Source: Escherichia phage Ecwhy_1. Taken from it: 64,000 bases of DNA. A program made the translations under genes and the position numbers. How positions within the stretch are numbered: position 1 is the first letter of the stretch; the number at the start of each line of letters is the position of its first letter. The stretch lies in sequence record MH791411.1; one strand, written 5' to 3'. The notes under the pieces were generated by a model that was not told the DNA's origin, did no database searches, and was given only the letters and a program-made list of their open reading frames with translations. Positions 1 to 25,866 of the stretch are shown here, in pieces.

Positions 1-495
1 TTCTGAATCTATTTTACTATACAAATCGAACATGTCAAGTAGATATTGATATGTATATGACTCCGATGACACACATGATTCTTGAAATAGACGTTCTTCC
101 ATATCATTTACTACTTCATCATTTGCGTCTCGAATCACACCATCTTTGTATGTGTAGTAAATCTCATCCCATTCATCTGATAAGCGGAATAGTAAAGGTT
201 TACCATTAAACATCTCAAGGTCATATGCATTGACTTCACTCAATAACATATCATCAGGATCAGGTGTGAAATCGAATTGAGCGAGTGAAGAACCATCATA
301 ATCCTTAAGGAATACACCAATAGCATTCAATTTAACTTCGCCATAATTGCCATTCTTGAACTTTACACGAATATTAATATCAATGTTTTGAACAGTATCA
401 TCATCTTGGAATTGATAATCAATTTTATACTTTTCCCAAAGTTTTTTAATATCTTTAAAGTACTTAATTTTACTTTCTATTTCTTTAAAGTTCAT
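1..495 (-). CDS. Fam-A paralog, partial (3' end beyond window)
   Basis: ATG at 495-493 on minus strand, open to position 1; contains EERLFQES core. Confidence 0.5.
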   Translation of the reverse strand, partial: MNFKEIESKIKYFKDIKKLWEKYKIDYQFQDDDTVQNIDINIRVKFKNGNYGEVKLNAIGVFLKDYDGSSLAQFDFTPDPDDMLLSEVNAYDLEMFNGKPLLFRLSDEWDEIYYTYKDGVIRDANDEVVNDMEERLFQESCVSSESYTYQYLLDMFDLYSKIDSE

Positions 496-1087
496 CTGGA
501 ACCGCCATCTCTTGTATGTTCTTGCATTTTATCATTGCACAATTAGTATGTAAAATGATAGCGTACTTGTGTAATGATTTAATTTTATAACACTCATTAA
601 GTACTGAAATGATGCCCCATAACTCTTCTACATCAATAGTGATAGGTTCACTAGTACTAAGTTGCATTAGTGCTGCTTCCACATCATCTTTGTTATTGAT
701 TTTGAACTGCATACCACGTTTCAGTATTTTGGTTTTTGGGTTATACTCTGCCATTACATCACCTTCAGGGTAACCCTCGTGTAATAATAATGTAGTCTCA
801 TAATCTCCACAATTGAAATTAATTTCATCATAGTCAGGAACACAAATCATTCCTTCACCATATTGATTATCTACTGATTCGATTGTTAAAATACGCTGAT
901 GTTCATTACTCAGGATAATAGAATCATGCCAGTACTGCGTAGTGAATTTACTACGTTTCTTTTGACAGCACATACTTGACATGGGACCATACTTTTTATA
1001 TAGGGACTTCTTGAATGCTATCGCATCAGGAGCCACCTTAATAACTTCTCGAATTAGGTCAATAGCTTCTTGATAACTTTTTCTCAT
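485..1087 (-). CDS. hypothetical protein, divergent Fam-A
   Basis: track ORF 485..1123 trimmed to internal ATG overlapping upstream stop (ATGA); C-terminal LMQLSTSEP resembles Fam-A core. Confidence 0.5.
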   Translation of the reverse strand: MRKSYQEAIDLIREVIKVAPDAIAFKKSLYKKYGPMSSMCCQKKRSKFTTQYWHDSIILSNEHQRILTIESVDNQYGEGMICVPDYDEINFNCGDYETTLLLHEGYPEGDVMAEYNPKTKILKRGMQFKINNKDDVEAALMQLSTSEPITIDVEELWGIISVLNECYKIKSLHKYAIILHTNCAMIKCKNIQEMAVPDEL

Positions 1088-1635
1088 TTGTCGTACCCAT
1101 ATAAAATATGATCTAGTGTGCATTGTACTTCTTCATGGAAGAACAGTGGGTAAATTTGTATCAATTTTTCTTTAAGTTCAAGTGAATGGCATAATTCTAA
1201 TGCTTTGATACAATCTTCATATTGAACTAAGCTATGTATTGTACTTAACTGGAAATGTTGTTCTTCAGAGTAAGCTAAATCATATACCAAATTATCATCT
1301 AAAAGGTTTGATTTCTTTGAAGGATCAAGTACTGTGTTGCTATGACCTACCCAGAAAAAAGCATTGGTGTTCATATTATTACAACCCCAACCTGCCCCCA
1401 TTTTCTGGTGAATAGCAAAGACACAACTATCATAGAGATTAATACCAAGACGTTCTTCGTTGACATAAATCGTAACACCATCGATTGTCATGGTTATTTG
1501 GAAACGCATTGAACCTTCACTTCGTGAACGTGCACAGAAGCCAAGATAACGGTTAATAATTGTATTGATTTTATCTGCCCATCCTTCCACATCTTTGGAT
1601 GCACATAATTTAAAAAGATCATGACTTTGATTCAT
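1084..1635 (-). CDS. Fam-A paralog
   Basis: core EEQHFQLSTIH; tightly coupled to neighbours. Confidence 0.6.
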   Translation of the reverse strand: MNQSHDLFKLCASKDVEGWADKINTIINRYLGFCARSRSEGSMRFQITMTIDGVTIYVNEERLGINLYDSCVFAIHQKMGAGWGCNNMNTNAFFWVGHSNTVLDPSKKSNLLDDNLVYDLAYSEEQHFQLSTIHSLVQYEDCIKALELCHSLELKEKLIQIYPLFFHEEVQCTLDHILYGYDK

Positions 1636-1646
1636 GTAGTTCTCCG

Positions 1647-2228
1647 TTAATCAAGCATAAGTGGCATCATCGCCCATATCTTTTTCATAATCATATCTTC
1701 AGTAAAAACAAACGTTTTAGGTGCAGTATATGATATTGACAACCCAAATGGAAGTACGATTGCATCATCAATTATATTATGAATATCAAACCATGTTTTT
1801 ACACAATCATATGGTGGAAGTTCATGTATTGTACTTAACTGAAAGTATTGTTCTTCACCAAATGTACTGCAATCAATATCACAAATTTTAGTGAATTGAT
1901 GATTCCATTTAGATATAATACTGTTTTTATTATTGAACATATTAGTTCTATGCATGAAACCATTTCTGCTAATATGATTTGATATTGCGTTTTCTTCAAT
2001 ATCATTGCTTATTTTAAAATTCATGTCAAAGTTGTAGTGCGAACTCGACGATTCTTTGAATTTTAAATGAAAATAACGATTGTTATTAATTTCCATTTCA
2101 ATACAAAACACATCCGAATCAAAACGATTAAACTTGTAATCGTTGTCTTCAGGTAGAGTCTGTAGTTTTTTCATAACACCAAGCATAGGGTGCACTAAGC
2201 TTCTAATAAAATCATTAGTTATTTTCAT
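1647..2228 (-). CDS. Fam-A paralog
   Basis: core EEQYFQLSTIH. Confidence 0.6.
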   Translation of the reverse strand: MKITNDFIRSLVHPMLGVMKKLQTLPEDNDYKFNRFDSDVFCIEMEINNNRYFHLKFKESSSSHYNFDMNFKISNDIEENAISNHISRNGFMHRTNMFNNKNSIISKWNHQFTKICDIDCSTFGEEQYFQLSTIHELPPYDCVKTWFDIHNIIDDAIVLPFGLSISYTAPKTFVFTEDMIMKKIWAMMPLMLD

Positions 2229-2721
2229 AGTATTCCTTTAGAACTTTAAATGATTCAACAATACAATCTTGTGTGTAATTAGAACTATATACAATTGCAT
2301 TTGATTTGATTGACCACAGATATGACATAAAGGTTATAACACTACTACATGAACTTAATGTATTGTTTTGGAATTCATTTTCTTCAATGTTATCAGTACT
2401 GGTATTGATGAATTGGATAGTATCTTGTTTCTGATTAGACATTGAAACTAAAGTACAATCAGTATAAGGAGTGTACAAAAACGTCTCATTACTAATTGAA
2501 CTATCATTAGTATATGATGGTTTGGTAATATAAATCAAACGCATGATATCACGCTCAATACCCGATTTACGACTTTCCACTAAAGAAATCATATCTATAT
2601 TTTTCATATGATCAACATTGACATGGAACTTTTTGTTTAGAATTACATCTTTTGGGGAATTTTTATATGAAGATAAGATCTCATACATCTCAACTAATTC
2701 TCGTGCATTTAATAAACTCAT
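2215..2721 (-). CDS. hypothetical protein, divergent Fam-A
   Basis: EENEFQNN motif; start uncertain. Confidence 0.45.
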   Translation of the reverse strand: MSLLNARELVEMYEILSSYKNSPKDVILNKKFHVNVDHMKNIDMISLVESRKSGIERDIMRLIYITKPSYTNDSSISNETFLYTPYTDCTLVSMSNQKQDTIQFINTSTDNIEENEFQNNTLSSCSSVITFMSYLWSIKSNAIVYSSNYTQDCIVESFKVLKEYYENN

Positions 2722-3146
2722 GTTTTGTCTCTTAATGAAAGAATATCCTTAGTATAAACTGAAACTGAAATATGATTATATTTCATCATTAATTTATACA
2801 CATAAGAAGCTAGTACTAAATCGTAAATTAATTTAGTATCATACAGTACTCCGTATTGTAAAGCAAGTGAATCAATATCATCTTTACTTTCAATATCCAG
2901 AAATGTGCCGAAATATGTAGTACCGTAGAGATGAAAATTGGAATTAATGCAATCAATGCATTCATTGTCCAACAGAGTAGATGATGATGCCCTCGGTGAA
3001 TCCCAAATAGTCACTGCGTGTATGCCCTCAACGAACAAATCTATCCATATTTTGTGTCGTTGTCTTTTTTTTGTTTTATAATTTTCTGGATTTGAAAGTG
3101 TAGTTTCAATTATATCCCATATGTATAAGCATTCATCTCTTGTCAT
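2718..3146 (-). CDS. hypothetical protein
   Basis: long ORF in co-oriented gene train; no clear family motif. Confidence 0.4.
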   Translation of the reverse strand: MTRDECLYIWDIIETTLSNPENYKTKKRQRHKIWIDLFVEGIHAVTIWDSPRASSSTLLDNECIDCINSNFHLYGTTYFGTFLDIESKDDIDSLALQYGVLYDTKLIYDLVLASYVYKLMMKYNHISVSVYTKDILSLRDKT

Positions 3147-3724
3147 TATAGCACCTTATCCATTGCTGCATTTAATGCTTTTAAACGATCAACATTCAAA
3201 GTATTGAAGATGTACGTTCCTAAAATGTGGAAATCGAACTGGTACTTTTTGTATGTGTGATAAATTAAACTACAAAAAATAACAGTACTAAGAACCTCTT
3301 CAGGTATAACGGTGCTCATCTGAAACAGTTCTTCATCAACTGTACTTGATTCTGGATTGATAGCTTTTAACTCATACTCTTTATCACCGAATAGTACTTT
3401 AATATTATATAAAACACCAACAGTACTAATATGAAATGGATGGTGTGAAAAACTTCCATCATCATTAATTTGGATATCGGATCTAATCTCGCACTCTTCA
3501 TTACTTTTACTATTATTTTTTACAATACAAATATTCCTGGCACCAGAAATAGTAAGAATACCGTGATCGTAATATTCTTTGGACATACATTTAGATGAAA
3601 ATGACACATCACGAATGAGGTAATGTTTGTTAATTTCTTTGGCACTACCAACAATGTGTAGCATCTTTGTACTGATATCATATAGCTGTTGGTGTCGGGC
3701 TGTCATATAACTATAAGCGTTCAT
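3146..3724 (-). CDS. Fam-A paralog
   Basis: core EELFQMSTV. Confidence 0.55.
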   Translation of the reverse strand: MNAYSYMTARHQQLYDISTKMLHIVGSAKEINKHYLIRDVSFSSKCMSKEYYDHGILTISGARNICIVKNNSKSNEECEIRSDIQINDDGSFSHHPFHISTVGVLYNIKVLFGDKEYELKAINPESSTVDEELFQMSTVIPEEVLSTVIFCSLIYHTYKKYQFDFHILGTYIFNTLNVDRLKALNAAMDKVL

Positions 3725-4295
3725 ATGTATCCTTGATGTTTTTGATTGCCGTGTGTAGCTCTTTTAATGTATCGGATTCACAGTTAATGAACTTACTATA
3801 CATTACCAATTCACCAGTGTCAATAGCTTTTGCAGTTTCATAGCAAAGCATCATGTACTCAAACTCCTTGAAGTTGTCAAGTACTGATCTCTGGAAAATG
3901 TATGCTTCACGAATGTCTTCACTTTGATCTAGTTCTGGTGGAATTTCCAAATATGTATCATTCTCTACGTCATCAAAATTAGATTCAACAATTCGATTAA
4001 TATCTTCGTGTAAAGCATTGACAAATATCATGTTTGGAGTAATGGAACCAATTCGCTCACTATGCCTTGATGTACGGATATACATTGCCATAGTATCCCA
4101 TGAACCTTTTTTTGTCGTTCCATAATCGTAAACTTTATAAGACTCCAGTACTACTGAACCAAAACGATATGGTGATTTGCATTCAACTTTAAGACGATAA
4201 TTTCCAATAGGCTCATGTTCAGTAATGTTGTGCTTTTCAGATAGTTCTGCAATGTCATGCATCAATTTCATAATTTGAATGTGTTCAGCTTGCAT
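3711..4295 (-). CDS. Fam-A paralog
   Basis: core EAYIFQRSVL. Confidence 0.55.
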   Translation of the reverse strand: MQAEHIQIMKLMHDIAELSEKHNITEHEPIGNYRLKVECKSPYRFGSVVLESYKVYDYGTTKKGSWDTMAMYIRTSRHSERIGSITPNMIFVNALHEDINRIVESNFDDVENDTYLEIPPELDQSEDIREAYIFQRSVLDNFKEFEYMMLCYETAKAIDTGELVMYSKFINCESDTLKELHTAIKNIKDTYERL

Positions 4296-4858
4296 TATAA
4301 GTCCTCTAATTTAACAGGTACATGTTCATTGATGAACGTCTTAAGAGCCAGTACTAGATCTTCTAATTCTTCTGTACTGAATTTTAATATAGTTTTAAAG
4401 ATTATCAATTCATTTCTTTCTATAATCTTTGGAATTTCATATGCTAACATAAGATTGCGAACAGTACCAGCGTTGTGTATGAGGTTCGCATTGAATAAAA
4501 GTACATCGTACTCGTCTTTTTTAATTTTATAATTGTACTCTTCAATTACTTCATGTGTGTATGTATTCTTATAAGCAATTTTATTTTTATGAAATTTATA
4601 ACCAACAGTAACACTATCATCATAAAATGTAGAACGATAATCTTGTTTTCTATCGCCGGACGAAATGATGTGTAATGCGGTGTATTTGTCCTCAACATCT
4701 AACTCAATGTTTGCATAACTGTTAACAGTTTCATTCTTTAGGACATTAATGTTATATTTCTCATTAACTTTAATGTACTGGCGTGCACCATTATCATCAA
4801 TGAACTTAAAACAATGCTTTATCAACAATGTGATTTCTTTAATTAATTCAGTGCTCAT
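4295..4858 (-). CDS. hypothetical protein, possible divergent Fam-A
   Basis: ORF preceded by TTTACA-N17-TATAAT promoter (4886-4914) and AGGAGA SD. Confidence 0.5.
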   Translation of the reverse strand: MSTELIKEITLLIKHCFKFIDDNGARQYIKVNEKYNINVLKNETVNSYANIELDVEDKYTALHIISSGDRKQDYRSTFYDDSVTVGYKFHKNKIAYKNTYTHEVIEEYNYKIKKDEYDVLLFNANLIHNAGTVRNLMLAYEIPKIIERNELIIFKTILKFSTEELEDLVLALKTFINEHVPVKLEDL

Positions 4859-4945
4859 ATCTTCTCCTGTACTCTGTTAAAAGCGATTATAACACACCTG
4901 AATGCTCATGTAAAGCACTAAACACAAAAAGACCCATAAGGGTCT

Positions 4946-5464
4946 TTATTTTGGTAAAACGCTGTCAATGTACGCTAGAGCCTCATCTCGGAGGTACGTT
5001 CCATCTATTGTTATGTAATAATTCTTAGGGATATCACTCCCAATCTTCTCGTAAATTTTCATACATGATATCACATCTTCATCACAAATGGTACTCAATT
5101 GAAACTGTACTTCATCAGTTAAAGGTACGATATCATGTTTAGATGGGGGGTTGGTATTTTCATTCAAAACAATATCAAACAAATTAGGAGTATTCTTTGA
5201 CGAAATGTAACGATGTTTACTACGAATTACCATTCTCGACAGAGAAATACTGGAACTCCATCTTTGGTCCACATCTTCGTATGTTAACGCAATTAACATT
5301 TCATAATAATCTTGGAATTTCATTGATGCATAATATGTTTTGTCCTCACCGTACATTCCAAATGATTTGAATTCAATGTCACCTACATTGTGTGTATCGC
5401 TATCACTATTCACGAATTTTAAAAGACTGTTGATTAGTCTGATTAGAATATCATCTTTATTCAT
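4946..5464 (-). CDS. Fam-A paralog
   Basis: core EVQFQLSTI; start trimmed to ATG 5464-5462 just after upstream stop; terminator hairpin directly downstream. Confidence 0.55.
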   Translation of the reverse strand: MNKDDILIRLINSLLKFVNSDSDTHNVGDIEFKSFGMYGEDKTYYASMKFQDYYEMLIALTYEDVDQRWSSSISLSRMVIRSKHRYISSKNTPNLFDIVLNENTNPPSKHDIVPLTDEVQFQLSTICDEDVISCMKIYEKIGSDIPKNYYITIDGTYLRDEALAYIDSVLPK

Positions 5465-6023
5465 TATCAGATAACTCCCTGTGCATGTTGTATAAATCTC
5501 TAAAGTCCTGATAGAAATCTTTTTCTTCAAGAATATCTTTTAAACTAGGAATCTCATCCATAATCTCATCGATATCAGTTTCAATAGTAAAACCTGATTT
5601 ATAATTTTGTAAGAGATAACTAAAAGCAACAAGATAAAGAATTTCATTTGGTTTATGAATTAACATGTGTTGGAACATAACTGATTCTAAATCAGATTCA
5701 GTACTAAGGTCAGCATAACATGTATCGTTGGTGTCAATTCGTACTGTACTTGAATTTGGATTCCATGTAAAGCAATGTGTTCCAACTGTTCCCAAACATC
5801 CTACTCTTGTACTATCATTTGTTCCCAAAAAGATATAAAAATACGTTTCATCTGTATAATCGTATTTTTGTACTTTACCTTTTTTAAGGCATAAATCATT
5901 ATCCTTTCGAAAAGTTTTAGATGATAGTGTATCAATGATGCACATTAATGTTTTTGCAAATGCAATACAATGACGTAATTCAAGTCTATGGAAATTATAA
6001 TTAGTAAAATTCATAAAATTCAT
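5457..6023 (-). CDS. hypothetical protein, divergent Fam-A
   Basis: motif ESVMFQHML; ATGA overlap with upstream gene. Confidence 0.5.
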   Translation of the reverse strand: MNFMNFTNYNFHRLELRHCIAFAKTLMCIIDTLSSKTFRKDNDLCLKKGKVQKYDYTDETYFYIFLGTNDSTRVGCLGTVGTHCFTWNPNSSTVRIDTNDTCYADLSTESDLESVMFQHMLIHKPNEILYLVAFSYLLQNYKSGFTIETDIDEIMDEIPSLKDILEEKDFYQDFRDLYNMHRELSDNE

Positions 6024-6562
6024 AATTGTACCTTCAATATTTTATCAGCAATTGATATAACCTTATCACTGAATACATTACCAATCTCAATTCTTATATA
6101 CATCGCAGGTGGAATCTTTCCCTGAAGTGCATAATATGTTTGTATACCTAAGTACTCATTATTTGATAATGAAAATTTGATTCTCTCCATATCTATGTCT
6201 GATGTTGGTAAATCTAGTAGTTCATGGTTGTAGTCAACATTTTCAGTGTATATCTGTTCGACGTAATTTGAATGATCACTACTAATGTAGATACTATCAT
6301 CACGAATAATTACTTTATAATCAGAAGGTTCAAACTTATCTTTAGGAGAAAAGAAGACATCATCTATCTTCTCTTCTCGGACACCGAATAACAATTTACC
6401 ATCGTACTTTACATCAAGCATACTACCTAGAATAGTAATTACACAATGATCATCAATATTATGACGTAAAGAACGAGTCTTGTATTTTGGGTTAATGAAA
6501 ATTTTCATTAATTTTATACAAATGTCGGCAATGCATTTTACATTATCATTTTCTATGTACAT
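6020..6562 (-). CDS. hypothetical protein
   Basis: ORF in coupled gene train; start uncertain. Confidence 0.45.
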   Translation of the reverse strand: MYIENDNVKCIADICIKLMKIFINPKYKTRSLRHNIDDHCVITILGSMLDVKYDGKLLFGVREEKIDDVFFSPKDKFEPSDYKVIIRDDSIYISSDHSNYVEQIYTENVDYNHELLDLPTSDIDMERIKFSLSNNEYLGIQTYYALQGKIPPAMYIRIEIGNVFSDKVISIADKILKVQL

Positions 6563-7040
6563 CGTAAATCCTCTTTAATTCTTTTACATTTTTAATGAAT
6601 ACTTTCATTGCAGAGATCTCAAAAGCTAATGATTTAAATTTGCAGTACTTTTTAAAGTACGACATAATGAATAGCATTTTGAGTTCTTTTTCTGTGTAAA
6701 TTAAACTATTTTGAAAGTAACTTTCTTCTGATAAATCATCAAGAAAAGGATATACAACTCCATTTGGAGTCAAGAACATGACACGTTCACTCCAAGATCT
6801 AAATGAAATGTAATCAGTCTTACCACATTCATATAAGGAGTTTATCATGCCATCAATCATTAAGGAGAACTCAATACTGTATCCTAATCGTTGACACTTG
6901 TATCTCTTATCTTCTTTCTTTGTAATTACAAAGTGACGACCCAATGCGTCTTTGTTATCGAAAATGAAATCAACTGTCTCTAAACACTCCTTAGCGAACT
7001 TCATAGTTTCTCTGTACTTTCGGTTCATTAGTCTCTCCAA
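6546..7040 (-). CDS. Fam-A paralog
   Basis: core EESYFQNSLIY. Confidence 0.6.
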   Translation of the reverse strand: MERLMNRKYRETMKFAKECLETVDFIFDNKDALGRHFVITKKEDKRYKCQRLGYSIEFSLMIDGMINSLYECGKTDYISFRSWSERVMFLTPNGVVYPFLDDLSEESYFQNSLIYTEKELKMLFIMSYFKKYCKFKSLAFEISAMKVFIKNVKELKRIYDVHRK

Positions 7041-7441
7041 ACTTTACCAGGGAAGTGTTTCTCGTAGAACTCATCATCACTTAACATATAATCAGGTGTT
7101 TCTACTTCTATGGGTTTGTAGAATGTTTCTGGAATGTGTGTAATTTTATTGGGTAGTACTTTATGTTCGCGTAAAACCTTCTGTATAGCTCCTAGACGTT
7201 GTAAATCAATACAGCCCGGCAGAACTAAGCTGTACTGAAATAGCTCATCAGGGGTCATTATAGATACATCCTTGGCTTGTTTGATTTTATTGTTGGCATC
7301 AATGAATATATCAAATCCAAGTACTGCATTATAGCTTACATATGTTGTTTTGTTTTTGTCAATAGCTGCACTTAAACTATATCCATATATTCCATGTTGG
7401 TCAACAATGCATCGTTGCATAATTTTAATCATTTCGAACAT
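7028..7441 (-). CDS. Fam-A paralog
   Basis: core DELFQYSLVL. Confidence 0.55.
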   Translation of the reverse strand: MFEMIKIMQRCIVDQHGIYGYSLSAAIDKNKTTYVSYNAVLGFDIFIDANNKIKQAKDVSIMTPDELFQYSLVLPGCIDLQRLGAIQKVLREHKVLPNKITHIPETFYKPIEVETPDYMLSDDEFYEKHFPGKVWRD

Positions 7442-7784
7442 AATTTACCTCGTATGTGTTATAATTCCACGTTTTAACACTATCCATTTGTATATCCTGA
7501 ACTTCATGGAAATATTTAAGTACCTTCTGGTATTCCATTAGTTCGTACACATCTTCAGTATTGACAGTGCTCTCCTGAAACAATTCCTCTTCTGATAAAG
7601 TACTATAATCAGGGATTTTTATTTCAGAATATATCTCATTCATATATGAATCATTTTGGTAAATCTGTAGATAAAACTGATTATATTCAGGGATATAGGT
7701 TACGAAATGGTTCTTGATGAATTCATATCTTGAAGCAAAGCAATCATTGCCATCCGTCATGTACTGAATTGTTGTATTATGCAT
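7425..7784 (-). CDS. Fam-A paralog
   Basis: core EEELFQESTV. Confidence 0.6.
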   Translation of the reverse strand: MHNTTIQYMTDGNDCFASRYEFIKNHFVTYIPEYNQFYLQIYQNDSYMNEIYSEIKIPDYSTLSEEELFQESTVNTEDVYELMEYQKVLKYFHEVQDIQMDSVKTWNYNTYEVNYVRND

Positions 7785-18347: not shown

Positions 18348-18982
18348 AATCCTATTTCCTTTAAATCTTCCAAAAATGTTTCATAATCACTTAAGGAAAA
18401 AAAGATATCCGTATCGATGTTCGCATCTAATACATTATACAAATTCTGCATCTGTAACACATCAGGAGCATCAATCAATGATTGCTGGAAATATGCAGCT
18501 TCATCTTCTAAAATATCCCTGAATGTTCTCTCTCGTACTCTGTGGTGTACTGAATTGAATATTGATTTCTCATCCTTAAGCATTGGTAGGTATCGAATGT
18601 ACATGTGTTCTCTTAGCTCAGGACTGATGGAACCCCTGAACTGTAACACGTATTCGAAGCACATAGCAACATCCTGAAGGTAATTGGCACTGTAATTATT
18701 GCTGTAAACAATCTTATGACTTCTGAACTCATCATCATTTCTGAACCAATTGTCACCTACTTTGGTGTACTTATGACTAAGCAATCCACCCTCTAACGCT
18801 TTGATGATCTTCAAAATGTTGTGTGCAAATGCATATGATGTATTGTACTTGGCCTGATACATGTGTGCCTCAACCTTATCTTGTGTTAAAATATTCACTG
18901 AAATGATTATAACACAAAAGCACCACGATGTTAAGCACTCTGTTGTCAAAATCATCTTGTGATGTAGGATGCAATGACGCAT
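18344..18982 (-). CDS. Fam-A paralog
   Basis: core DEAAYFQQSLI; true start may be internal (about 18862). Confidence 0.55.
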   Translation of the reverse strand: MRHCILHHKMILTTECLTSWCFCVIIISVNILTQDKVEAHMYQAKYNTSYAFAHNILKIIKALEGGLLSHKYTKVGDNWFRNDDEFRSHKIVYSNNYSANYLQDVAMCFEYVLQFRGSISPELREHMYIRYLPMLKDEKSIFNSVHHRVRERTFRDILEDEAAYFQQSLIDAPDVLQMQNLYNVLDANIDTDIFFSLSDYETFLEDLKEIGL

Positions 18983-19070
18983 TGATGTTAAAATTCACTA
19001 TATCATTGTGGAATTGGTATGTGAACAAATCAAACTTCGTATGCCTTTGTTTGATATCATAGGCGGTCAT
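18876..19070 (-). CDS. hypothetical small protein
   Basis: 64-aa ORF between two Fam-A genes; real only if 18344..18982 starts at internal Met. Confidence 0.3.
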   Translation of the reverse strand: MTAYDIKQRHTKFDLFTYQFHNDIVNFNINASLHPTSQDDFDNRVLNIVVLLCYNHFSEYFNTR

Positions 19071-19071
19071 A

Positions 19072-19680
19072 TTATATATTCAACCCTTTAACAATGGAAA
19101 TAAATTCTTTGTAAACATTTTCAGGTAAAGCTCTACTACCATAAAGAACACTAAATTCAGGTAACATATCCGAAATCTCTTTCGCTAAATTTATTTCATC
19201 CCTGAACATTTGCACAGGCATGATATCCTGTACCAATGATAACTGAAAGAAAAATGATTCAATATCTTCATGCACCTCTGAATTTAAATAAATCTCTTCT
19301 GGAAACTGGGCTGTACTGTAATAATAAAATACGTCAATTCTTTTTTCATTATTTTGTACAAGAGGTAAATTTCTTTCGTCTCTCTTATTAATATTTGTTT
19401 TCCATGACTCAATGTTATTCGGAACCCAAAACTCATAAGGTGTCTTCTCTCCTGAAATATTATCCAGCTTCAATCCATAATATTCACTTTCGCCGTACTT
19501 TTGCTTCAAAACAATACCTGTACTACTAATGTTTACAATGTACGTATCAACAATCCCTTCTGTGGTAAAAGGAATATTTAACTCTGAACCTTCAGGGTAC
19601 TTAGCATTGAATGCATCTAATGCTTTACTTAGCACTGGAATTGCACTTGCACTGTACTTCATTAATTGGTCTATGTTCAT
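19072..19680 (-). CDS. Fam-A paralog
   Basis: core ESFFFQLSLV. Confidence 0.55.
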   Translation of the reverse strand: MNIDQLMKYSASAIPVLSKALDAFNAKYPEGSELNIPFTTEGIVDTYIVNISSTGIVLKQKYGESEYYGLKLDNISGEKTPYEFWVPNNIESWKTNINKRDERNLPLVQNNEKRIDVFYYYSTAQFPEEIYLNSEVHEDIESFFFQLSLVQDIMPVQMFRDEINLAKEISDMLPEFSVLYGSRALPENVYKEFISIVKGLNI

Positions 19681-20321
19681 TTTAATTCCCCTGTAATCAC
19701 TGCATTTACTGCACTTGATGCAAATAAACTGATATTTGAACGATACATATCGTACACTGTACTTTCTTTCTTGTGCACAATGAAATCATAAAGATCAACA
19801 AATGCAGGAATAATAATCTTGAATGATTTATTTGGGTACGTCCCAAAATCAACTGTACTCAATTTTGCAACGAGCATAACAACAAAGATTTCTTCTGGAC
19901 TATACACTGTACTGTACTGAAAATAATCCTCTGCACTCATGGCACTCATTGCATTTATATCTTGTGTTTGTAATGTAATATTAAGACAATCAAAAATATA
20001 ATAAAACTCTGATTTGTTTTGTATTTTGTATTTGTCAATTGGGGTATCTCTCATGAACCATAAACGATCTTGTCCATAAAAAGGAATGATTGAATTTGGG
20101 GAAGCCAGAAATACTTCTTCTCTATCAATATCCTTTAACTCAATTTGCATACCGGATGAATTGGCAATAATTAATTCATTAAAAATATAATGAACCTTGT
20201 GTACAATCTCTTGTACTGAATTGAAATCATCTGGTATTTTAAAATTTTCCATAGGTATCTCCTTAAAATGATTACACATTGTACCATGCATTTGTACTCG
20301 TGTCAAACAAAAAAAGCCCAT
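19677..20321 (-). CDS. Fam-A paralog
   Basis: core AEDYFQYSTVY. Confidence 0.6.
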   Translation of the reverse strand: MGFFCLTRVQMHGTMCNHFKEIPMENFKIPDDFNSVQEIVHKVHYIFNELIIANSSGMQIELKDIDREEVFLASPNSIIPFYGQDRLWFMRDTPIDKYKIQNKSEFYYIFDCLNITLQTQDINAMSAMSAEDYFQYSTVYSPEEIFVVMLVAKLSTVDFGTYPNKSFKIIIPAFVDLYDFIVHKKESTVYDMYRSNISLFASSAVNAVITGELK

Positions 20322-20324
20322 ATC

Positions 20325-20822
20325 TTACGATACAGGCATGTTTATTTGAATTTCATTGTACAAATCATCAATATATAGACATGAAAACGATAAACTTTCT
20401 TTAACTATATTGTTGTGATAAAGCATTTTAAATGCAATATAGAAAAATAAATCAATATCATCATGTACTAAATTCTGCTGGAACCACCACTCTTCTGTTA
20501 AATCTTGTGCATTAAAATCATCAGGAACTACAATTGACGACATATCAGCATCTTCTTTGTACTCAAACCACATGTCGTCATTTGGATAACGTTCATGCTT
20601 CTCTGGGTAACAATTGCTGGGATTAAATGCTAAAATATAAAATGCCGTCGCAGAATGTTCTTTATTATAAAATGAATTATTCCACACCTGATACCTTTCA
20701 CCAACATCAAACTCTTTTGATACTGATGTTATTGCACATAATGTACGATATATTGTTTCTATTTTGTGAACAAATTTAAAGGCTGCATCTAAACTGAACT
20801 CTAAATCAGACATGCGGTGCAT
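20325..20822 (-). CDS. Fam-A paralog
   Basis: core EEWWFQQNLV. Confidence 0.55.
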   Translation of the reverse strand: MHRMSDLEFSLDAAFKFVHKIETIYRTLCAITSVSKEFDVGERYQVWNNSFYNKEHSATAFYILAFNPSNCYPEKHERYPNDDMWFEYKEDADMSSIVVPDDFNAQDLTEEWWFQQNLVHDDIDLFFYIAFKMLYHNNIVKESLSFSCLYIDDLYNEIQINMPVS

Positions 20823-21142
20823 AAAATTACCTCAACTAAAATAAGAACGGTATTGAATTCGATGCAACCTTTGATACCTTGATTGTACATGTACTTTGCT
20901 ACTACATATTTCTGTACTAAATTATAATTATTAAATTCCTCAAAATTGTAATTTAGAATGAAATTTGTACTCAAAAATAACTTATGCATCTCTAATGCAC
21001 TCTGATAATATTTGTACAACTCTCTGATATCAATACTTTGTAAATCACTTTGTTCATATCTATGATAAGGAATGGCTTCAATTTCAATACTATAAAACCA
21101 TTCTCTTAACTTCTTAATATCAAATGTATTATTCAGCTTCAT
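20801..21142 (-). CDS. hypothetical protein
   Basis: ORF in gene train, no family motif. Confidence 0.4.
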   Translation of the reverse strand: MKLNNTFDIKKLREWFYSIEIEAIPYHRYEQSDLQSIDIRELYKYYQSALEMHKLFLSTNFILNYNFEEFNNYNLVQKYVVAKYMYNQGIKGCIEFNTVLILVEVILCTACLI

Positions 21143-21698
21143 AACTCAATACCTCCATTAAGCACTCATAAACACCATCAATCGCATAAGCACAAAAACT
21201 GAAATTAATTTTGTTATTCTTGTGTAATGGACTATTGTATACTGTACTCAACATAACACTATAAAACAAAGAACGTTCATGTGTAAATAATGATTCCTGA
21301 AAAAATGCTTCCTCTGATTTAATTTTATTATATTCAATCGATTGATCATTAGAATAAAATGAATCTTGATTTGAATTGTACCATGTGTAATCCAAATCAT
21401 TCTTTGATATAACTGGTGTTGGATTAAACTGTAAAAGACTAATAACACTACGGGCATTTGGGGTATCAGGTGTATTGAATCGTTTGTCAAAATAACTTGT
21501 GCACGCAATATGTGAATCAAAATCAGATGGTTTAAACCCCATGAATGCGTTAATGATTCTTGTATATGGTTTTTTATTATGTGCTGCTTTCTGTACATTA
21601 TATAAGGCTGCAACAATACAAGCTAACTTTTGTCCCATTAGGATTGCATTAGCGTAGGTGTACTGAATTTCATTGCTGGTACGGTACTTCGAGATCAT
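21129..21698 (-). CDS. Fam-A paralog
   Basis: core EEAFFQESLF. Confidence 0.6.
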   Translation of the reverse strand: MISKYRTSNEIQYTYANAILMGQKLACIVAALYNVQKAAHNKKPYTRIINAFMGFKPSDFDSHIACTSYFDKRFNTPDTPNARSVISLLQFNPTPVISKNDLDYTWYNSNQDSFYSNDQSIEYNKIKSEEAFFQESLFTHERSLFYSVMLSTVYNSPLHKNNKINFSFCAYAIDGVYECLMEVLSYEAE

Positions 21699-22020
21699 GG
21701 AACAGCCTCACTTTGCCTAACTCGTCATTGGATATTAATTCGTTAACAGCTTTCTGTATATTCTTTAATAATAGCACATCAAATCCTTTTGTGTCAAGCA
21801 CACATTGCATTTGGAAGAATTCTTCTTCTGATAATGTATTAAAATCCACAAAATTGTCTAATATTACGTCATTATCCAAATGTGCCATGTACCATGTATT
21901 TCTTTCGGAGCGTTTGATAAAATTCCATCCATCTGGATAATCGGGTTCTAATTCTACATATATCCCTGATAATGTATAAAGCATTTTATACTTCATAACT
22001 ATTGTACTCATTGCTTTCAC
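21670..22020 (-). CDS. Fam-A paralog
   Basis: core EEEFFQMQCV; close paralog of next gene. Confidence 0.65.
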   Translation of the reverse strand: MKAMSTIVMKYKMLYTLSGIYVELEPDYPDGWNFIKRSERNTWYMAHLDNDVILDNFVDFNTLSEEEFFQMQCVLDTKGFDVLLLKNIQKAVNELISNDELGKVRLFHDLEVPYQQ

Positions 22021-22328
22021 TGTACGTCGATGTCATAATACGCTCCTACCTCATAATCTTTCTTGCTTTGGAATTCATTAACGGCTTTCTGTATATTTCT
22101 TAATGTTACCATGTCATGTCCGTACATGTCAACCACCAATTGCATTTGGAAAAATTCTTCTTCAGATAATGTATTAAAATCTATAAAATAATCCGTAACA
22201 ACCTGTGCGTCTAAATTTGCCATGTACCATTGATTGGTATCGACCTCTTTAACCAAATTCCATGCATCTGAATCGGATTCTAATTCTACATATATTAATG
22301 TTAATGTATACAGCATTTTATACTTCAT
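22017..22328 (-). CDS. Fam-A paralog
   Basis: core EEEFFQMQLV. Confidence 0.65.
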   Translation of the reverse strand: MKYKMLYTLTLIYVELESDSDAWNLVKEVDTNQWYMANLDAQVVTDYFIDFNTLSEEEFFQMQLVVDMYGHDMVTLRNIQKAVNEFQSKKDYEVGAYYDIDVQ

Positions 22329-22878
22329 AACTATATCCTTGCATTAAAAGATCATAAGCAATATCAACTAATTCTAAACGAATGAAAAATTTTAAATTAT
22401 CTTTCAATGGATTCAAATGCATTGTACTAAACAACATAAGATACTTCATTTGATTTGTATTGTATATTAGGGATGTCTGAAATACTTCTGCTTCATTGTA
22501 AGGATCAATGAATTTTATACCTTCTTCACTATAATCCGTTTTGGAATTCTGATATATAAAATAATCATCACCATAATTGTACCACAAATAACCTTCAAAA
22601 CTGGAATCAAATTCTGAATTTTCATTTCGCATTAAAGGTGATACTGAAATTGGATTTGAACCAACTGTTGCACAAACCTCAATGAAAGCATCTTCATTTC
22701 CCTTAACTTCTTCTTTGATTTTATCATTGTACTGTCCTGCAAAACCAGCTTTTACTTCCAAATATAAACTACTCCCAACTTTATTAATTCTTAAAAGGGA
22801 ACTCTGTACTGTATTCGCATTGTCCAGCACTAACGATATTGTGCAAATCTTATGTACCAATAACTCAATATCATTCAT
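22318..22878 (-). CDS. Fam-A paralog
   Basis: core EAEVFQTSLIY. Confidence 0.55.
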   Translation of the reverse strand: MNDIELLVHKICTISLVLDNANTVQSSLLRINKVGSSLYLEVKAGFAGQYNDKIKEEVKGNEDAFIEVCATVGSNPISVSPLMRNENSEFDSSFEGYLWYNYGDDYFIYQNSKTDYSEEGIKFIDPYNEAEVFQTSLIYNTNQMKYLMLFSTMHLNPLKDNLKFFIRLELVDIAYDLLMQGYSYEV

Positions 22879-23211: not shown

Positions 23212-23622
23212 CTAATCGTGCCATTTAATAGGATACTCCGTTCCATTTATTGTATAAGATATAATCCATCCGTAATGAATAGGATGATTTTTGTCTGAAA
23301 CAGGAATAAAATATAAAGATGTACTGGGGTTATAACTGAATAAATCGTTGTTACCAATTGTAAAATGTGATAACTCAATCTTCCTTGTACCTGTACTTGG
23401 ACGAAGAACATTCTTAACACCGAAGACTGTACCTTGATATTTCTCGGAAAATTCAAACAATGCATCTGCAATTAAATCACGAAACTCCGCATGTATGGTT
23501 TCAAAAAAATCTATATTACACGATGTTTTAATATCCTTGAACTCCTTATATAAAGAGCTTCTTGTATTCAAAAGAAATATTACTTTTTTAAGATCCTGAA
23601 CTATTTCTGGATTCATATTCAT
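23212..23622 (-). CDS. hypothetical protein
   Basis: 136-aa ORF, no family motif. Confidence 0.45.
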   Translation of the reverse strand: MNMNPEIVQDLKKVIFLLNTRSSLYKEFKDIKTSCNIDFFETIHAEFRDLIADALFEFSEKYQGTVFGVKNVLRPSTGTRKIELSHFTIGNNDLFSYNPSTSLYFIPVSDKNHPIHYGWIISYTINGTEYPIKWHD

Positions 23623-23872
23623 TTATCTCATTCTGTAACTTAAGCATCAAAATTTGCATATTAATTTTTTGTACAAGATGATTGAGAAATTTCTGTACTG
23701 TATCTTCTTGTTCTTTTGTACCAAGATAAAATAACATATTAAATTCAGATAATCTCAGAGCGAAATCTTCCTCTCCCCCTCGTAAACAAAAATCCCTGTA
23801 CTTTGAAGCATACAAATAAGCATCTATCTTTTTATACCTTTGGGTCTGCATTGTATCTCCTTTTTCATGCAC
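23588..23872 (-). CDS. Fam-B minigene (outlier)
   Basis: LGTKEQED core. Confidence 0.45.
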   Translation of the reverse strand: MHEKGDTMQTQRYKKIDAYLYASKYRDFCLRGGEEDFALRLSEFNMLFYLGTKEQEDTVQKFLNHLVQKINMQILMLKLQNEINEYESRNSSGS

Positions 23873-24036
23873 CTTATTAGATTATCAACGTATTGATCCT
23901 GTACTATTGTCCCTAGATAAAATGATACTTCGAACTCTGATAATTTTATATTGAAAGGATCTACATATACATCTTTAATAAACTCTTTGTACTTCAACAT
24001 ATATGCATTAGGTATATTCTTATATATCGATTTCAA
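23824..24036 (-). CDS. Fam-B minigene (outlier)
   Basis: LGTIVQDQ core. Confidence 0.45.
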   Translation of the reverse strand: MKSIYKNIPNAYMLKYKEFIKDVYVDPFNIKLSEFEVSFYLGTIVQDQYVDNLIRCMKKEIQCRPKGIKR

Positions 24037-24331
24037 TGATCCTCCCTGACATACCTTGTATTAGCTTATCATACATATCGAGCATCACTTTTTGAATACT
24101 AATTAATACTGGCATCGTGCAAATATCAATGTCGTATATTAAGCTGTACTGGAATAATTCCTCTTCCTGCATGTGTACTAAATTAGGTAAAAGATAATTG
24201 TCTGCCTCTTCATCCTGGTACTTGAAATGCATAACACCATCCTTTTTGTACAAAAGAATGTCAATATCACCTAACTCTTCTGCATAACCAAAAATACATA
24301 TACTCGATGTTTTTGCTATATTAAATTTCAT
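24020..24331 (-). CDS. Fam-A paralog
   Basis: core EEELFQYSLIY. Confidence 0.6.
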   Translation of the reverse strand: MKFNIAKTSSICIFGYAEELGDIDILLYKKDGVMHFKYQDEEADNYLLPNLVHMQEEELFQYSLIYDIDICTMPVLISIQKVMLDMYDKLIQGMSGRIIEIDI

Positions 24332-24340: not shown

Positions 24341-24691
24341 TTATATGTAGAATTCACATACGCGTTGAACAAAATTCTTTGGAAGATGACAATGTGCAAT
24401 CATCTGCTTTTGTACTTCCTTCATGTCTTCGAATGTAAATCCTAAAGAATCATCATGTACTAACAAGTACTGAAACTCTTCTTCTTCAGAGATAGAACAT
24501 AAATTCGGTACTGAAATTGTTTTTGCTTTTCTTGCACCCAATTTCCAATGAAAAGAATTATTGCATTTTCTGTACTCAAATATCTTCAACCCAGAACCTG
24601 TATTAAAATCAGCTACTACAATGTAACATGAATTCTTACGTACAATACAATTGAACTTACGCATTATCTCCACCTCTCTCCGTCTGTACAA
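24341..24691 (-). CDS. Fam-A paralog
   Basis: core EEEEFQYLLV; likely starts at MRKFN (about 24664). Confidence 0.55.
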   Translation of the reverse strand: MYRRREVEIMRKFNCIVRKNSCYIVVADFNTGSGLKIFEYRKCNNSFHWKLGARKAKTISVPNLCSISEEEEFQYLLVHDDSLGFTFEDMKEVQKQMIAHCHLPKNFVQRVCEFYI

Positions 24692-24909
24692 GAGTACTGG
24701 TACGTTGTCGTTAGGGTAGGGACCATGTTGGTAATGGGCATATTATTAACAATAACGGTAACAGGCATAAGTATCGTCTCTACTCTACTCTGTCCTGTCC
24801 TTGTGCAATTCATCTTTTGCATTTCATCGGACTCCATGAAATACAATACAAATGGTGCAATCCCAAGAACAATACACAAGACGATAAGGAAATTTAAAAA
24901 ATTCAACAT
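24664..24909 (-). CDS. small membrane protein (N-terminal TM helix)
   Basis: hydrophobic MLNFLNFLIVLCIVLGIAPFVLYF; TTGACA-N17-TATAGT promoter upstream; stop overlaps downstream ATG. Confidence 0.45.
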   Translation of the reverse strand: MLNFLNFLIVLCIVLGIAPFVLYFMESDEMQKMNCTRTGQSRVETILMPVTVIVNNMPITNMVPTLTTTYQYSCTDGERWR

Positions 24910-24970
24910 AATTTTCTACCCTAATGATTAACGTACAGGTACTATATCAGTAATGAAAAGTACTGTCAAG

Positions 24971-25345
24971 CTAGTATTGCACTGTTCTAATGAAAGTACC
25001 TTTACTCATGGATTTAAGCTTATGAACCTCTTCCTGTATACCCTTGATTAACCCTAAAGGTATAGGTACATCATGTACTAAGCTGTACTGAAAGTATTCT
25101 TCTTCAGATAAAGTACTAACATCTGGAATACCAATTTTAGTTATATAATCTTGATGTGTTGACCAATAAATTATATCTTCAGTACTATTGTACTCCCCAT
25201 ATACTGAACAATATTGATGAATATCTTTCATGTATCCTTGAGCAATAAAGAACTTATCTACTGCATTACCAGCATTAATAGAATTCACTTCGATTGTCAC
25301 AGTACTTGAGCTTGTTTTTCCTTTACTATGCATATTAATCCCCAA
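24971..25345 (-). CDS. Fam-A paralog
   Basis: core EEEYFQYSLV. Confidence 0.6.
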   Translation of the reverse strand: MGINMHSKGKTSSSTVTIEVNSINAGNAVDKFFIAQGYMKDIHQYCSVYGEYNSTEDIIYWSTHQDYITKIGIPDVSTLSEEEYFQYSLVHDVPIPLGLIKGIQEEVHKLKSMSKGTFIRTVQY

Positions 25346-25521
25346 ATTAGATATCGAACACTATCAGCTTGATAGTTAGTTCCTACTGTGTGTTTTAATA
25401 TTAACTCATCTTTCAGTACTGAACATTCTGCATTAGATATAGGAAGAGAATTAATTCTTTGAATTTCTGGTCGCAAAATACCGCGAAGCTTGCGGTAATC
25501 TTCGTATGATAATATTTTCAT
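25297..25521 (-). CDS. Fam-B minigene
   Basis: VGTNYQAD core. Confidence 0.5.
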   Translation of the reverse strand: MKILSYEDYRKLRGILRPEIQRINSLPISNAECSVLKDELILKHTVGTNYQADSVRYLIWGLICIVKEKQAQVL

Positions 25522-25524
25522 TGT

Positions 25525-25866
25525 TTAGTACTCAACGATGTGTTCTTCATAACCATTAAACTCCGGTTTAGTTTCTTTCATTAGGACTACCATTTTATGT
25601 ACTAATGGCATAGGAAATTCTAAATCCCATACTAATGATTCTTGAAAGTATTCTTCTTCAGATAAAGTACTTAAATCTTTAATATCAACGTGCTTGTATA
25701 TTTTATTTTCGTAATTAAGAAATGATATATATAAATCATTAACATCAGAATCATAAGTAATTGTGAATGGCTTACCCTTGTAGTCCATTACATCTTTACA
25801 TAGACTGCATTTGATATATGTATGTTCTTCTGAACTGTATACATTGAGTTGTATATTAGTTTTCAT
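25525..25866 (-). CDS. Fam-A paralog
   Basis: core EEEYFQESLVW. Confidence 0.6.
   Translation of the reverse strand: MKTNIQLNVYSSEEHTYIKCSLCKDVMDYKGKPFTITYDSDVNDLYISFLNYENKIYKHVDIKDLSTLSEEEYFQESLVWDLEFPMPLVHKMVVLMKETKPEFNGYEEHIVEY

Follow-up and report, generated by a model that had tools for sequence, protein, structure and literature searches.

A tandem family of small proteins with a shared F-Q motif near the terminal repeat of a Rak2-like jumbo coliphage

Our analysis of a 64,000-nucleotide stretch of Escherichia phage Ecwhy_1 (sequence record MH791411.1; the whole stretch is hereafter called the window) indicated that much of its first 26 kb is taken up by a single family of small tandem genes, named Fam-A here, with 38 certain members and up to 44 in the whole window. 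Sequence comparisons point to a superfamily restricted to enterobacterial Rak2-like jumbo phages, and modelling predicts an alpha/beta scaffold that appears to match no solved structure. The function that we favour, tentatively and at a little less than an even chance, is that of an early repertoire, read by the host polymerase, whose products would bind host or defence proteins, the shared motif serving as folding core and the variable parts giving specificity.

The existence of the family was clearly established by its motif and by profile searches. The relaxed form [ED][ED]x[hydrophobic]FQx[ST] had 21 occurrences in the six-frame translation, every one of them on the minus strand within 1-26000, against an expected 0.045 from nucleotide shuffles and 0.038 from residue shuffles. 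An iterated hidden Markov model (HMM) was seeded on the motif-bearing open reading frames (ORFs), with E <= 1e-10 as the limit for a certain member. The 38 certain members (E 1e-10 to 8.5e-36) all lie on the minus strand, at 1084-25866; the next-best ORF scored E = 0.011, and shuffled proteins never fell below 0.19. The same 38 were recovered by a model to which 150 database relatives had been added and by another including all members from the closely related phage fEgEco12. BLASTP alone breaks the family into small groups. Together, the certain members cover 67% of bases 1-25866, a region tiled by about 60 ORFs, of which 5-6 come from a separate tiny-gene family and about 12 were placed in neither family. 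The upper figure of 44 includes six marginal ORFs with a recognisable motif; the large co-oriented tandem family described earlier was thus found, at a size below the roughly 50 paralogs then proposed. By HHalign, for which controls gave 0.2-0.3% probability, the ORFs 485-1123, 2718-3146, 4295-4858, 6020-6562, 10032-10634, 20801-21142 and 23212-23622 could not be placed in Fam-A. At the fEgEco12 locus the array extends past the window start, with two further members 2-3 kb beyond. The array and its members are listed below, with the motif in brackets, lengths in amino acids (aa), E values from the iterated family HMM and, for modelled proteins, the predicted local distance difference test (pLDDT) and predicted template modelling (pTM) scores; nt stands for nucleotides and pI for isoelectric point.

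1084-25866, minus strand: main tandem array, 38 certain members by iterated HMM, continuing past coordinate 1
1084-1635, minus strand: long form, 183 aa (SEEQHFQLS), E = 6.5e-22
1647-2228, minus strand: long form, 193 aa (GEEQYFQLS), E = 3.3e-21
3146-3724, minus strand: long form, 192 aa (VDEELFQMS), E = 1.7e-22
4946-5530, minus strand: long form, at most 194 aa (TDEVQFQLS), start probably an ATG 66 nt downstream of the longest-ORF start, E = 3.8e-21
5457-6023, minus strand: long form, 188 aa (LESVMFQHM), E = 7.8e-21
6546-7040, minus strand: long form, 164 aa (SEESYFQNS), basic (pI 9.1), E = 2.3e-21
7028-7441, minus strand: short form, 137 aa (TPDELFQYS), E = 2.2e-13
7425-7784, minus strand: short form, 119 aa (SEEELFQES), E = 1.9e-18
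7777-8259, minus strand: long form, 160 aa (TEEMYFQGS), E = 1.9e-32
8256-8738, minus strand: long form, 160 aa (SEEEFFQYS), E = 6.5e-25
8798-9388, minus strand: long form, at most 196 aa (NEENYFQQS), E = 2.3e-27
9339-9677, minus strand: short form, 112 aa (DTGELFQES), E = 1.8e-11
9667-10026, minus strand: short form, 119 aa (QEDELFQES), E = 3.2e-13
10625-11221, minus strand: long form, at most 198 aa (TEENIFQNS), E = 8.2e-21
12067-12513, minus strand: long form, 148 aa (TEEGYFQGS), E = 5.3e-27
12503-12952, minus strand: long form, 149 aa (SEDAYFQYS), E = 1.4e-25
12952-13266, minus strand: short form, 104 aa (HETFLFQES), E = 5e-11
13263-13706, minus strand: long form, 147 aa (SEEYYFQNS), first of five closer paralogs, E = 3.4e-33
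13681-14172, minus strand: long form, 163 aa, net charge -30, AlphaFold-modelled (pLDDT 87.4, pTM 0.82), E = 8.5e-36
14175-14615, minus strand: long form, 146 aa (TEEYYFQQS), E = 4.4e-32
14612-15082, minus strand: long form, 156 aa (SEEFYFQQN), E = 9.5e-31
15084-15575, minus strand: long form, 163 aa, unaligned in fEgEco12 and 99% identical to its PBECO4 orthologue, E = 2.8e-35
15585-15944, minus strand: short form, 119 aa (DDVELFQAS), E = 1.1e-15
15941-16300, minus strand: short form, 119 aa (DEAELFQES), E = 4.9e-21
16297-16710, minus strand: short form, 137 aa (DDAALFQEA), E = 1.1e-16
17438-18064, minus strand: long form, at most 208 aa (SEEMLFQYK), E = 6.5e-17
18003-18347, minus strand: short form, 114 aa (DEAARFQHE), E = 1e-10
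18344-18982, minus strand: long form, 212 aa (DEAAYFQQS), E = 2.7e-24
19677-20321, minus strand: long form, at most 214 aa (SAEDYFQYS), shorter according to the fEgEco12 annotation, E = 8.6e-21
20325-20822, minus strand: long form, 165 aa (TEEWWFQQN), E = 1.4e-21
21129-21698, minus strand: long form, 189 aa (SEEAFFQES), E = 3.9e-22
21670-22020, minus strand: short form, 116 aa (SEEEFFQMQ), E = 1.1e-12
22017-22328, minus strand: short form, 103 aa (SEEEFFQMQ), E = 1.1e-12
22318-22878, minus strand: long form, 186 aa (NEAEVFQTS), E = 2.4e-22
24020-24331, minus strand: short form, 103 aa (QEEELFQYS), E = 2.8e-16
24341-24691, minus strand: short form, 116 aa (SEEEEFQYL), basic (pI 8.8), E = 2.6e-17
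24971-25345, minus strand: short form, 124 aa (SEEEYFQYS), E = 3.5e-22
25525-25866, minus strand: short form, 113 aa (SEEEYFQES), AlphaFold-modelled (pLDDT 80.6), two tandem copies in fEgEco12, E = 1.1e-21
1-483, minus strand: marginal member by its motif, truncated at the window edge, C-terminal part only (MEERLFQES), HMM E = 0.046, full-length fEgEco12 orthologue E = 0.024
2215-2721, minus strand: marginal member (IEENEFQNN), HMM E = 0.011, HHalign 45%
3711-4295, minus strand: weak candidate (REAYIFQRS), HHalign 10%, HMM not significant
11534-12070, minus strand: weak candidate (FDEQCFQLS), HMM E = 0.05-0.1, HHalign 7%
19072-19680, minus strand: marginal member (IESFFFQLSLVQD), HHalign 70% at the motif columns, HMM E = 0.018
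56115-56774, minus strand: probable divergent solitary member, F-M replacing F-Q (LSEEEEFMYSTVID; LSEEEEFMYS), broadened HMM E = 0.0086, better than every shuffle, HHalign 40%

Of the certain members, 23 are long forms of 146-214 aa and 15 are short forms of 103-137 aa, the latter aligning to the C-terminal two-thirds of the profile only. N-terminal content does vary, as had been proposed, because the first helix and two strands are missing from the short forms. Paralogs share a mean column identity of 12%, and Phe and Gln are the only invariant residues of the 38-member alignment. The core E-E-x-[Y/L/F]-F-Q-x-S, earlier called invariant, fits 15 of the 38 members in its strict form, while [ED][ED]xxFQ fits 27 of 38. 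The F-Q pair, 38-50 residues before the C-terminus, precedes a hydrophobic helix, in agreement with the position (40-60 residues) and the hydrophobic module first described, but the VLD..WYFK..FYLD pattern given for that module is limited to the subfamily at 13263-15575. This subfamily consists of five adjacent genes, closer paralogs that are 32-57% identical to 13681-14172 and amount to a younger local expansion. The whole signature can be written [ST]-E-E-x-[YLF]-F-Q-x-S-[LT]-[VIL]-[YHW]-[DN]; in 221 aligned sequences, [ST] was found in 67%, the two Glu in 82% and 75%, [YLF] in 82%, F and Q in 100% each and, after F-Q-x, S in 87%, [LT] in 98%, [VIL] in 95%, [YHWF] in 78% and [DN] in 60%, frequencies that are partly circular because the sequences were picked using the profile. 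The distant gene 56115-56774, once thought to carry the same core, has F-M instead of F-Q and lies within a different tiny-gene array; F-M is likewise carried by three certain members in fEgEco12, which supports 56115-56774 as a real member.

No named domain could be assigned to the module, as the preliminary description had suspected. In Pfam, searched with all 38 members, no family recurred: 21 different families were each matched by one member, with a best E of 0.0014. The same database gave no consistent match, and no fused known domain, for 10 neighbouring genes outside the family and 10 relatives that are longer or dispersed. There was no NCBIfam match among members, PADLOC returned two single-member matches only, and the family profile matched no PDB sequence even at E = 10. 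Pfam DUF2283 (PF10049) was considered and rejected, with 13.1-13.9 bits against a gathering threshold of 23, E 0.06-0.11 and half of the profile covered; of the 38 members, only 25525-25866 gave the match, together with its close orthologues, and the UniRef DUF2283 label was not reproduced. An 87-aa protein (P0230), 94% identical to the 25525-25866 product, is entered in public databases under Actinomadura adrarensis (1,057-bp contig) as a 'DUF2283 domain-containing protein', an assignment that looks like phage contamination of that assembly. In PHROGs, members matched groups 9317, 12674, 28549, 28680, 38467, 29816, 30978, 19795, 13866 and others at E 1e-36 to 1e-121, phrog_13866 only at about 1e-8. 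At least 12 separate PHROGs groups are involved, all labelled 'unknown function'; several are linked by weak cross-matches to phrog_12674 and phrog_9317, and the groups that PHROGs keeps as separate families are united here as one superfamily.

From a structural point of view, in the AlphaFold model of 13681-14172, built on a 38-sequence alignment, an opening helix (3-21) precedes seven beta strands; three helices follow (99-103, 109-115 and 121-135), and the chain closes with one more strand and a last helix. The motif EEYYFQN forms helix 109-115 (pLDDT 96-98), and the signature as a whole corresponds to this short helix and the turn into the next, hydrophobic helix. The short form 25525-25866, modelled on a 55-sequence alignment, has five strands, two helices, the first of which carries the motif, and a C-terminal strand. 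The predicted fold would be an antiparallel beta-meander sheet packed against helices, extended in the long forms by an N-terminal helix and two strands. The Polo-box domain (PLK1/2/4, ZYG-1, KKT3) was counted among the nearest known systems; kinship with it would call for a six-stranded antiparallel sheet plus one helix and for significant structural superposition. Conserved polar residues stand at the expected helix caps ([ST]EE for the motif helix, D/N for the next), which in these models suggests that the signature is mainly the folding core of the scaffold, made of helix caps and a buried Phe. The likeness of EExYFQ(G/S) to the tobacco etch virus (TEV) protease site was set aside as coincidence, and the reading of Q-x-S-L-V-[FW] as a bacterial clamp-binding motif was likewise rejected, because the models place the motif in a helix of high confidence and not in a linker. 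On the practical side, two members do fit E-x-x-Y-x-Q-G, namely 7777-8259 (EEMYFQG) and 12067-12513 (EEGYFQG), and the TEV pattern E-x-x-Y-x-Q-(G/S) in both is relevant when they are expressed with TEV-cleavable tags. Fam-A proteins are mostly acidic, with a median pI of 4.7 and -6.6 charges per 100 aa, two members being basic; 13681-14172 reaches -30 over 163 aa and 15084-15575 reaches -23. The median pI is 8.0-8.9 in the neighbouring tiny-gene array, the repeat genes and the right arm, and a comparison with neighbouring gene sets gave 8.6-8.9, which makes the acidity specific to Fam-A.

The array is tightly packed, in accordance with the coupling by ATGA and short overlaps initially noticed. 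Overlaps or gaps of at most 15 nt account for 54 of the 59 gene junctions: there are 11 ATGA overlaps, 4 one-base overlaps, 29 longer overlaps (counted on longest ORFs, so that a few shrink to 1-4 nt with a downstream start) and 10 gaps of at most 15 nt, and the remaining 5 are gaps of more than 40 nt. Four of these five larger gaps hold sigma-70-like sites on the coding strand at 10/12 or better. The promoter scan retained the following sites.

8801-8772, minus strand: perfect sigma-70-like promoter TTGACA-18-TATAAT with TG, in an array gap
4886-4947, minus strand: hairpin (4928-4947), then an 11/12 sigma-70-like promoter (4914-4886), in an 87-nt gap
24969-24941, minus strand: 11/12 sigma-70-like promoter with TG, in a 61-nt gap
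18997-19100, minus strand: two 10/12 promoter-like sites (19025-18997 and 19100-19071), in an 89-nt gap
16856-16828, minus strand: 9/12 site, the best in the fifth gap (16,711-17,070)
20278-20337, minus strand: terminator-like hairpin (20337-20316), then an 11/12 promoter (20306-20278), the latter inside the long ORF 19677-20321, whose true start probably lies downstream

Seven perfect 12/12 sigma-70 promoters (TTGACA-16/17-TATAAT) lie at 33.7-39.2 kb, in the adjoining terminal repeat, all on the coding strand and thus the same strand as the array. Perfect and the many 11/12 sites are nearly all on the coding strand.

The position of the array was deduced by aligning the window to fEgEco12, a phage whose genome ends have been established by PhageTerm and restriction mapping (PMC13070987). 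The Asteriusvirus jumbo coliphages fEgEco12, EC.P1 and Turkey3 match the window at 96-98% and PBECO4 at about 87%, which by sequence makes the window phage an Asteriusvirus, a PBECO4/121Q/fEgEco12-like or "Rak2-like" jumbo coliphage. In this alignment, window 1-25,866 corresponds to positions 53,916-27,622 of the fEgEco12 record, 6.6-33 kb inward of the left terminal repeat; the 21-kb direct terminal repeat of fEgEco12 corresponds to window 31,912-53,864, and its record position 1, the physical genome end, falls at window ~53,864, the unique right arm occupying 53,865-64,000. The source assembly has the repeat collapsed, since the terminus is crossed within the window. GC skew and coding strand both switch at about 54 kb. 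In phage orientation, the order is left end, repeat, tiny-gene array, Fam-A array and nucleotide-metabolism genes, with one reading direction throughout. The Fam-A array is thus placed in a unidirectional small-gene arm, near the inner edge of the left direct terminal repeat and co-oriented with it, and a methyltransferase gene stands at its far end in fEgEco12, PBECO4 and fENko-Kae01. The repeat also holds a 28-nt hairpin in three copies on the minus strand (33367-33394, 36124-36151 and 39394-39421), AAAGGGATTGACTC(C/A)GGTCAGTCCCTTT, whose 5' arm carries a TTGACT -35 box, itself followed by TATTAT; its sequence suggests a terminator/promoter or regulatory element repeated within the terminal repeat.

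Beyond the window, a HMMER scan of 1.84 billion representative proteins gave 157 clusters (50% identity) at E <= 0.001. The matches listed measured 55-215 aa, apart from one spurious 773-aa tandem-repeat protein (P0040, 14 matched stretches), which shares only 'FQH' with the family. Named database members belong to Asteriusvirus phages or to E. coli assemblies containing such phages, and the others come from metagenome contigs. Relatives were found in the Klebsiella aerogenes phage fENko-Kae01 and in the Salmonella phages Munch, 7t3, SE_PL and PHA46. In fENko-Kae01, 17-24 members form an array whose first member ORF, at record position 19,759, follows the verified 19,736-bp repeat by 23 nt, and in Erwinia phage Hallingskeid a single 20-kb tandem run contains 24 members, with the short forms ahead of the long ones, as in the window. 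Foldseek searches of BFVD matched only uncharacterised proteins of 121Q, SP27, RaK2, Serratia BF, Yersinia fHe-Yen9-03 and GAP32. A tblastn search of 50,697 phage genomes with the family consensus, too insensitive for this purpose, found Asteriusvirus and Salmonella relatives only, and tblastn with P0163 gave no phage match. An iterated profile scan of the whole fEgEco12 genome found 60 members among 670 annotated genes (~9%, about 1 in 11), a share in line with an earlier statement on RaK2, where paralogues make up nearly 10% of the products (PMC3622015). Forty-two of them form the main array (27-56 kb from the verified left end), 12 are scattered at 276.7-297.5 kb in the other small-gene arm, and 6 are solitary (67.3, 106.4, 119.6, 311.5, 317.2 and 331.6 kb). 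These 18 members outside the main array are more diverged, the three with F-M among them. One solitary member, g581, lies in an RCC1-like fibre-gene array, on the strand opposite to the surrounding fibre genes.

Fam-A genes are coding and under purifying selection. The ratio of non-synonymous to synonymous substitution rates (dN/dS), determined on 33 orthologue pairs with PBECO4, ranged from 0.08 to 0.74 with a median of 0.28, close to the 0.29 of neighbouring genes, so that the term 'diversifying' used of this family is not supported in the sense of positive selection. Orthologue identity with PBECO4 is mosaic (26% to 99%), and synonymous divergence (dS) spreads from 0.02 to more than 2, which points to allele replacement by recombination. 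Variation of copy number between related phages, earlier put forward as a check, was indeed observed: the window and fEgEco12 (~98% identical) differ by three member-sized indels or duplications. Firstly, 15084-15575 (window 15094-15590) is unaligned in fEgEco12 and nearly identical to the PBECO4 copy, its flanking genes being 71-95% identical to PBECO4, a pattern that reads as a sign of recent recombination between lineages. Secondly, fEgEco12 has an extra member near window 22.3 kb (~22278-22357) and, thirdly, 25525-25866 (window 25525-25867) is present there as two tandem copies. PBECO4 carries 38 members, with a different membership. Fam-A arose by old tandem duplications, copies still being gained and lost; the paralogs are anciently diverged and syntenic across species, which gives the picture of a long-kept repertoire with some turnover instead of an accordion in rapid expansion.

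Regarding function, a host-interaction or anti-defence role is plausible in view of position, promoters, acidity and absence from virions. According to our preferred reading, the array genes would be read early by the host RNA polymerase from consensus sigma-70 promoters in the repeat and the array gaps, and their products would remain in the cytoplasm instead of being packaged in virions. The conserved motif would serve mainly as folding core of the scaffold, through helix caps and a buried Phe, while the variable sheet, the loops and the N-terminal extension would give each paralog its own partner among host or host defence proteins. With one scaffold and a different partner for each paralog, the array would constitute a host-takeover or counter-defence effector repertoire. 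Terminal-repeat genes of phage PA5oct belong to the early class read by the host RNA polymerase (PMC7318152), and RpoD-like promoters were taken as marking early regions, repeat included, in phage CBB (PMC5259590). Indirect evidence that Fam-A products are non-virion proteins comes from phage phAPEC6, whose virion proteome includes no protein between gp347 and gp549 (PMC7247149, Table 1) and whose member gp442c falls in this gp348-gp548 zone without virion mass spectrometry matches. In fENko-Kae01, likewise, a mass spectrometry flag is found on just 1 of about 28 array genes.

Several points weigh against this interpretation. We infer the early class from consensus-promoter scans and analogy with relatives, and the total number of promoter-like sites (104, against 125 in shuffles) is not above chance, so that the argument rests on top-scoring sites, strand bias and placement in gaps. 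The sole relative with RNA sequencing data, the remote Pseudomonas phage PA5oct, has no member in its first 50 kb, terminal repeat included. Acidity is weak evidence, small acidic proteins being common among phage early genes. No gene-wide positive selection was seen in the 33 PBECO4 pairs, and a repertoire engaged in an arms race with the host might show it. Finally, the invariant Gln and the near-invariant Glu-Glu and Ser could mark a shared functional site instead of a folding core.

Eukaryotic viruses offer a parallel. The MGF360/505 genes of African swine fever virus (ASFV) and the Bcl-2-like and ankyrin families of poxviruses are non-structural terminal paralogs that are thought or have been shown to bind different host factors. 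Like them, Fam-A is a tandem cluster close to a genome end, in which dozens of diverged paralogs are built on a single small scaffold and both copy number and alleles vary between isolates (the three differences from fEgEco12 and the wide range of orthologue identity described above). Unlike them, it belongs to a bacterial virus, has no sequence or fold relationship with these families, consists of much more diverged paralogs, and gave no sign of rapid 'accordion' amplification. Among phages, unidirectional small-gene blocks at a genome end are also found in the T5 pre-early region, the SPO1 terminal-redundancy module and the PA5oct repeat genes; these consist of small genes of unknown function with strong host-type promoters, and the PA5oct block is early (PMC7318152), but they hold mostly unrelated genes, whereas the Fam-A array is one expanded family. 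The zinc-ribbon expansion of Bacillus phage G, in about 35 copies (Iyer et al., 2021; PMC7824862), is likewise a lineage-specific tandem expansion, unrelated to Fam-A.

The conservation of the motif also allows a different, though unlikely, explanation, in which the F-Q helix, with its Glu-Glu and Ser, is an exposed site that docks all paralogs on one shared partner, such as the phage's Clp-type unfoldase/protease or the host RNA polymerase, the variable part picking the cargo. Such a common hub would account for residues held in all or most of the 221 sequences (F and Q throughout, S and the two Glu in most) while the remainder drifts, and the depositors' annotations of fEgEco12 do include a Clp ATP-binding subunit, a 'protease adapter protein' and HslV-like and other proteases. 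The conserved polar residues, however, stand at the expected helix N-caps ([ST]EE of 109-115, D/N before 121-135), where a structural role suffices, and three certain members carry M for Q. A bolder version, to which we attach rather little weight, makes Fam-A a combinatorial 'adaptor library' of the phage on a fold not seen before, its F-Q helix docking about 60 paralogs on one hub and the variable sheet of each paralog capturing a different host protein, defence proteins included, for destruction or inhibition. As a separate observation, the fEgEco12 depositors annotated, at 81-92, 168, 252 and 306 kb, a Clp ATP-binding subunit, several proteases, a 'protease adapter protein' and an HslV-like subunit, as well as a Sir2-like protein, NUDIX hydrolases and a WGR-domain protein, some of which could be partners or functional context of Fam-A.

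It is also rather improbable that the family consists of nucleic-acid-binding regulators. The motif helix, the 5-residue turn and the long helix would then act as a helix-turn-helix-like pair binding DNA or RNA, in an expanded set of transcription or translation regulators such as has been proposed for the phage G zinc ribbons. A dispensable filler, that is, duplicates amassed as capsid and genome grew ('ratchet' model) and kept without distinct functions, would fit the copy number differences between near-identical phages; we nevertheless regard it as quite doubtful, given the dN/dS values reported above, ORFs that stay intact despite the low identity of paralogs, and a motif, fold and repeat-adjoining position conserved across genera with less than 30% genome identity (average nucleotide identity; PMC13070987). 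Anti-restriction DNA mimics like Ocr or ArdA, expanded in number so as to act on many nucleases, would suit the extreme acidity of 13681-14172 and 15084-15575, the early location and the methyltransferase gene at the array's far end in three phages, but the combination of uniformly high negative surface charge with a known mimic fold was not found in Fam-A, and this explanation seems very unlikely. A role as virion, injected or assembly proteins (internal head proteins, decoration, fibre chaperones) is the least credible and already largely refuted by the phAPEC6 proteome: what speaks for it is a liquid chromatography-tandem mass spectrometry flag in fENko-Kae01 on 1 of about 28 array genes, the marginal member ENKO_077 (E = 5.5e-4), in a sample of ultrafiltered lysate that also contained DNA polymerase and other non-structural proteins (PMC11218385).

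Lineage-specific expansion in these phages was known in outline, and Fam-A itself is undescribed: our literature searches found no paper defining or studying the family, its motif, fold or distribution, and the papers on fEgEco12, Sharanji, RaK2, CBB and fENko-Kae01 annotate all members as hypothetical. 'Very similar genes' were remarked on in the 121Q/RaK2 clade (Hua et al., 2017; PMC5646251), a remark repeated in a 2026 review (PMC13282480) and mentioned for phAPEC6 by Wagemans et al.; it may refer to the 31-member tiny-gene family described below rather than to Fam-A. Within the ~80% of 'hypothetical' genes of these phages, Fam-A is one of the largest unexplained blocks, and its questions are directly testable with an E. 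coli host and easily grown phages. Should the proteins turn out to be effectors of host takeover or counter-defence, the array would offer many new inhibitors of bacterial proteins and could explain how jumbo phages that form no nucleus cope with host immunity. If they prove dispensable, this would support the growth of jumbo genomes by retained duplication.

Other paralogous families surround the array. A second tandem family comprises 31 genes of 60-94 aa on the minus strand, mostly basic, with the consensus MKILTKEEYQELL...LGTNYQEQYV. It occupies window 25856-31814, plus 11169-11556, 23588-24036 and 25297-25521; 25 of its genes follow one another without interruption from the Fam-A array towards the terminal repeat, the other 6 being interspersed in the Fam-A array. 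A third tandem family, of 17 minus-strand genes of 59-78 aa (54167-58336; consensus MHKEYYISKL...YYEVLKLIF), lies on the right arm directly outside the terminal repeat and surrounds the Fam-A-like gene 56115-56774. Further along, four plus-strand paralogs of 382-412 aa (58881-63729) are rich in Gly/Asn/Ser/Thr repeats, and three of them start with MLPFVRM(F/V)xYGN (five residues in for 62521-63729; at an internal Met in the 59968 ORF). Their fEgEco12 counterparts, about 14 in an array, carry the label 'chromosome condensation regulator' or 'DNA condensation protein'; the phAPEC6 virion proteome contains proteins with such labels (gp003-gp010, gp549 and gp551), and these paralogs may therefore be the hair-like fibres.

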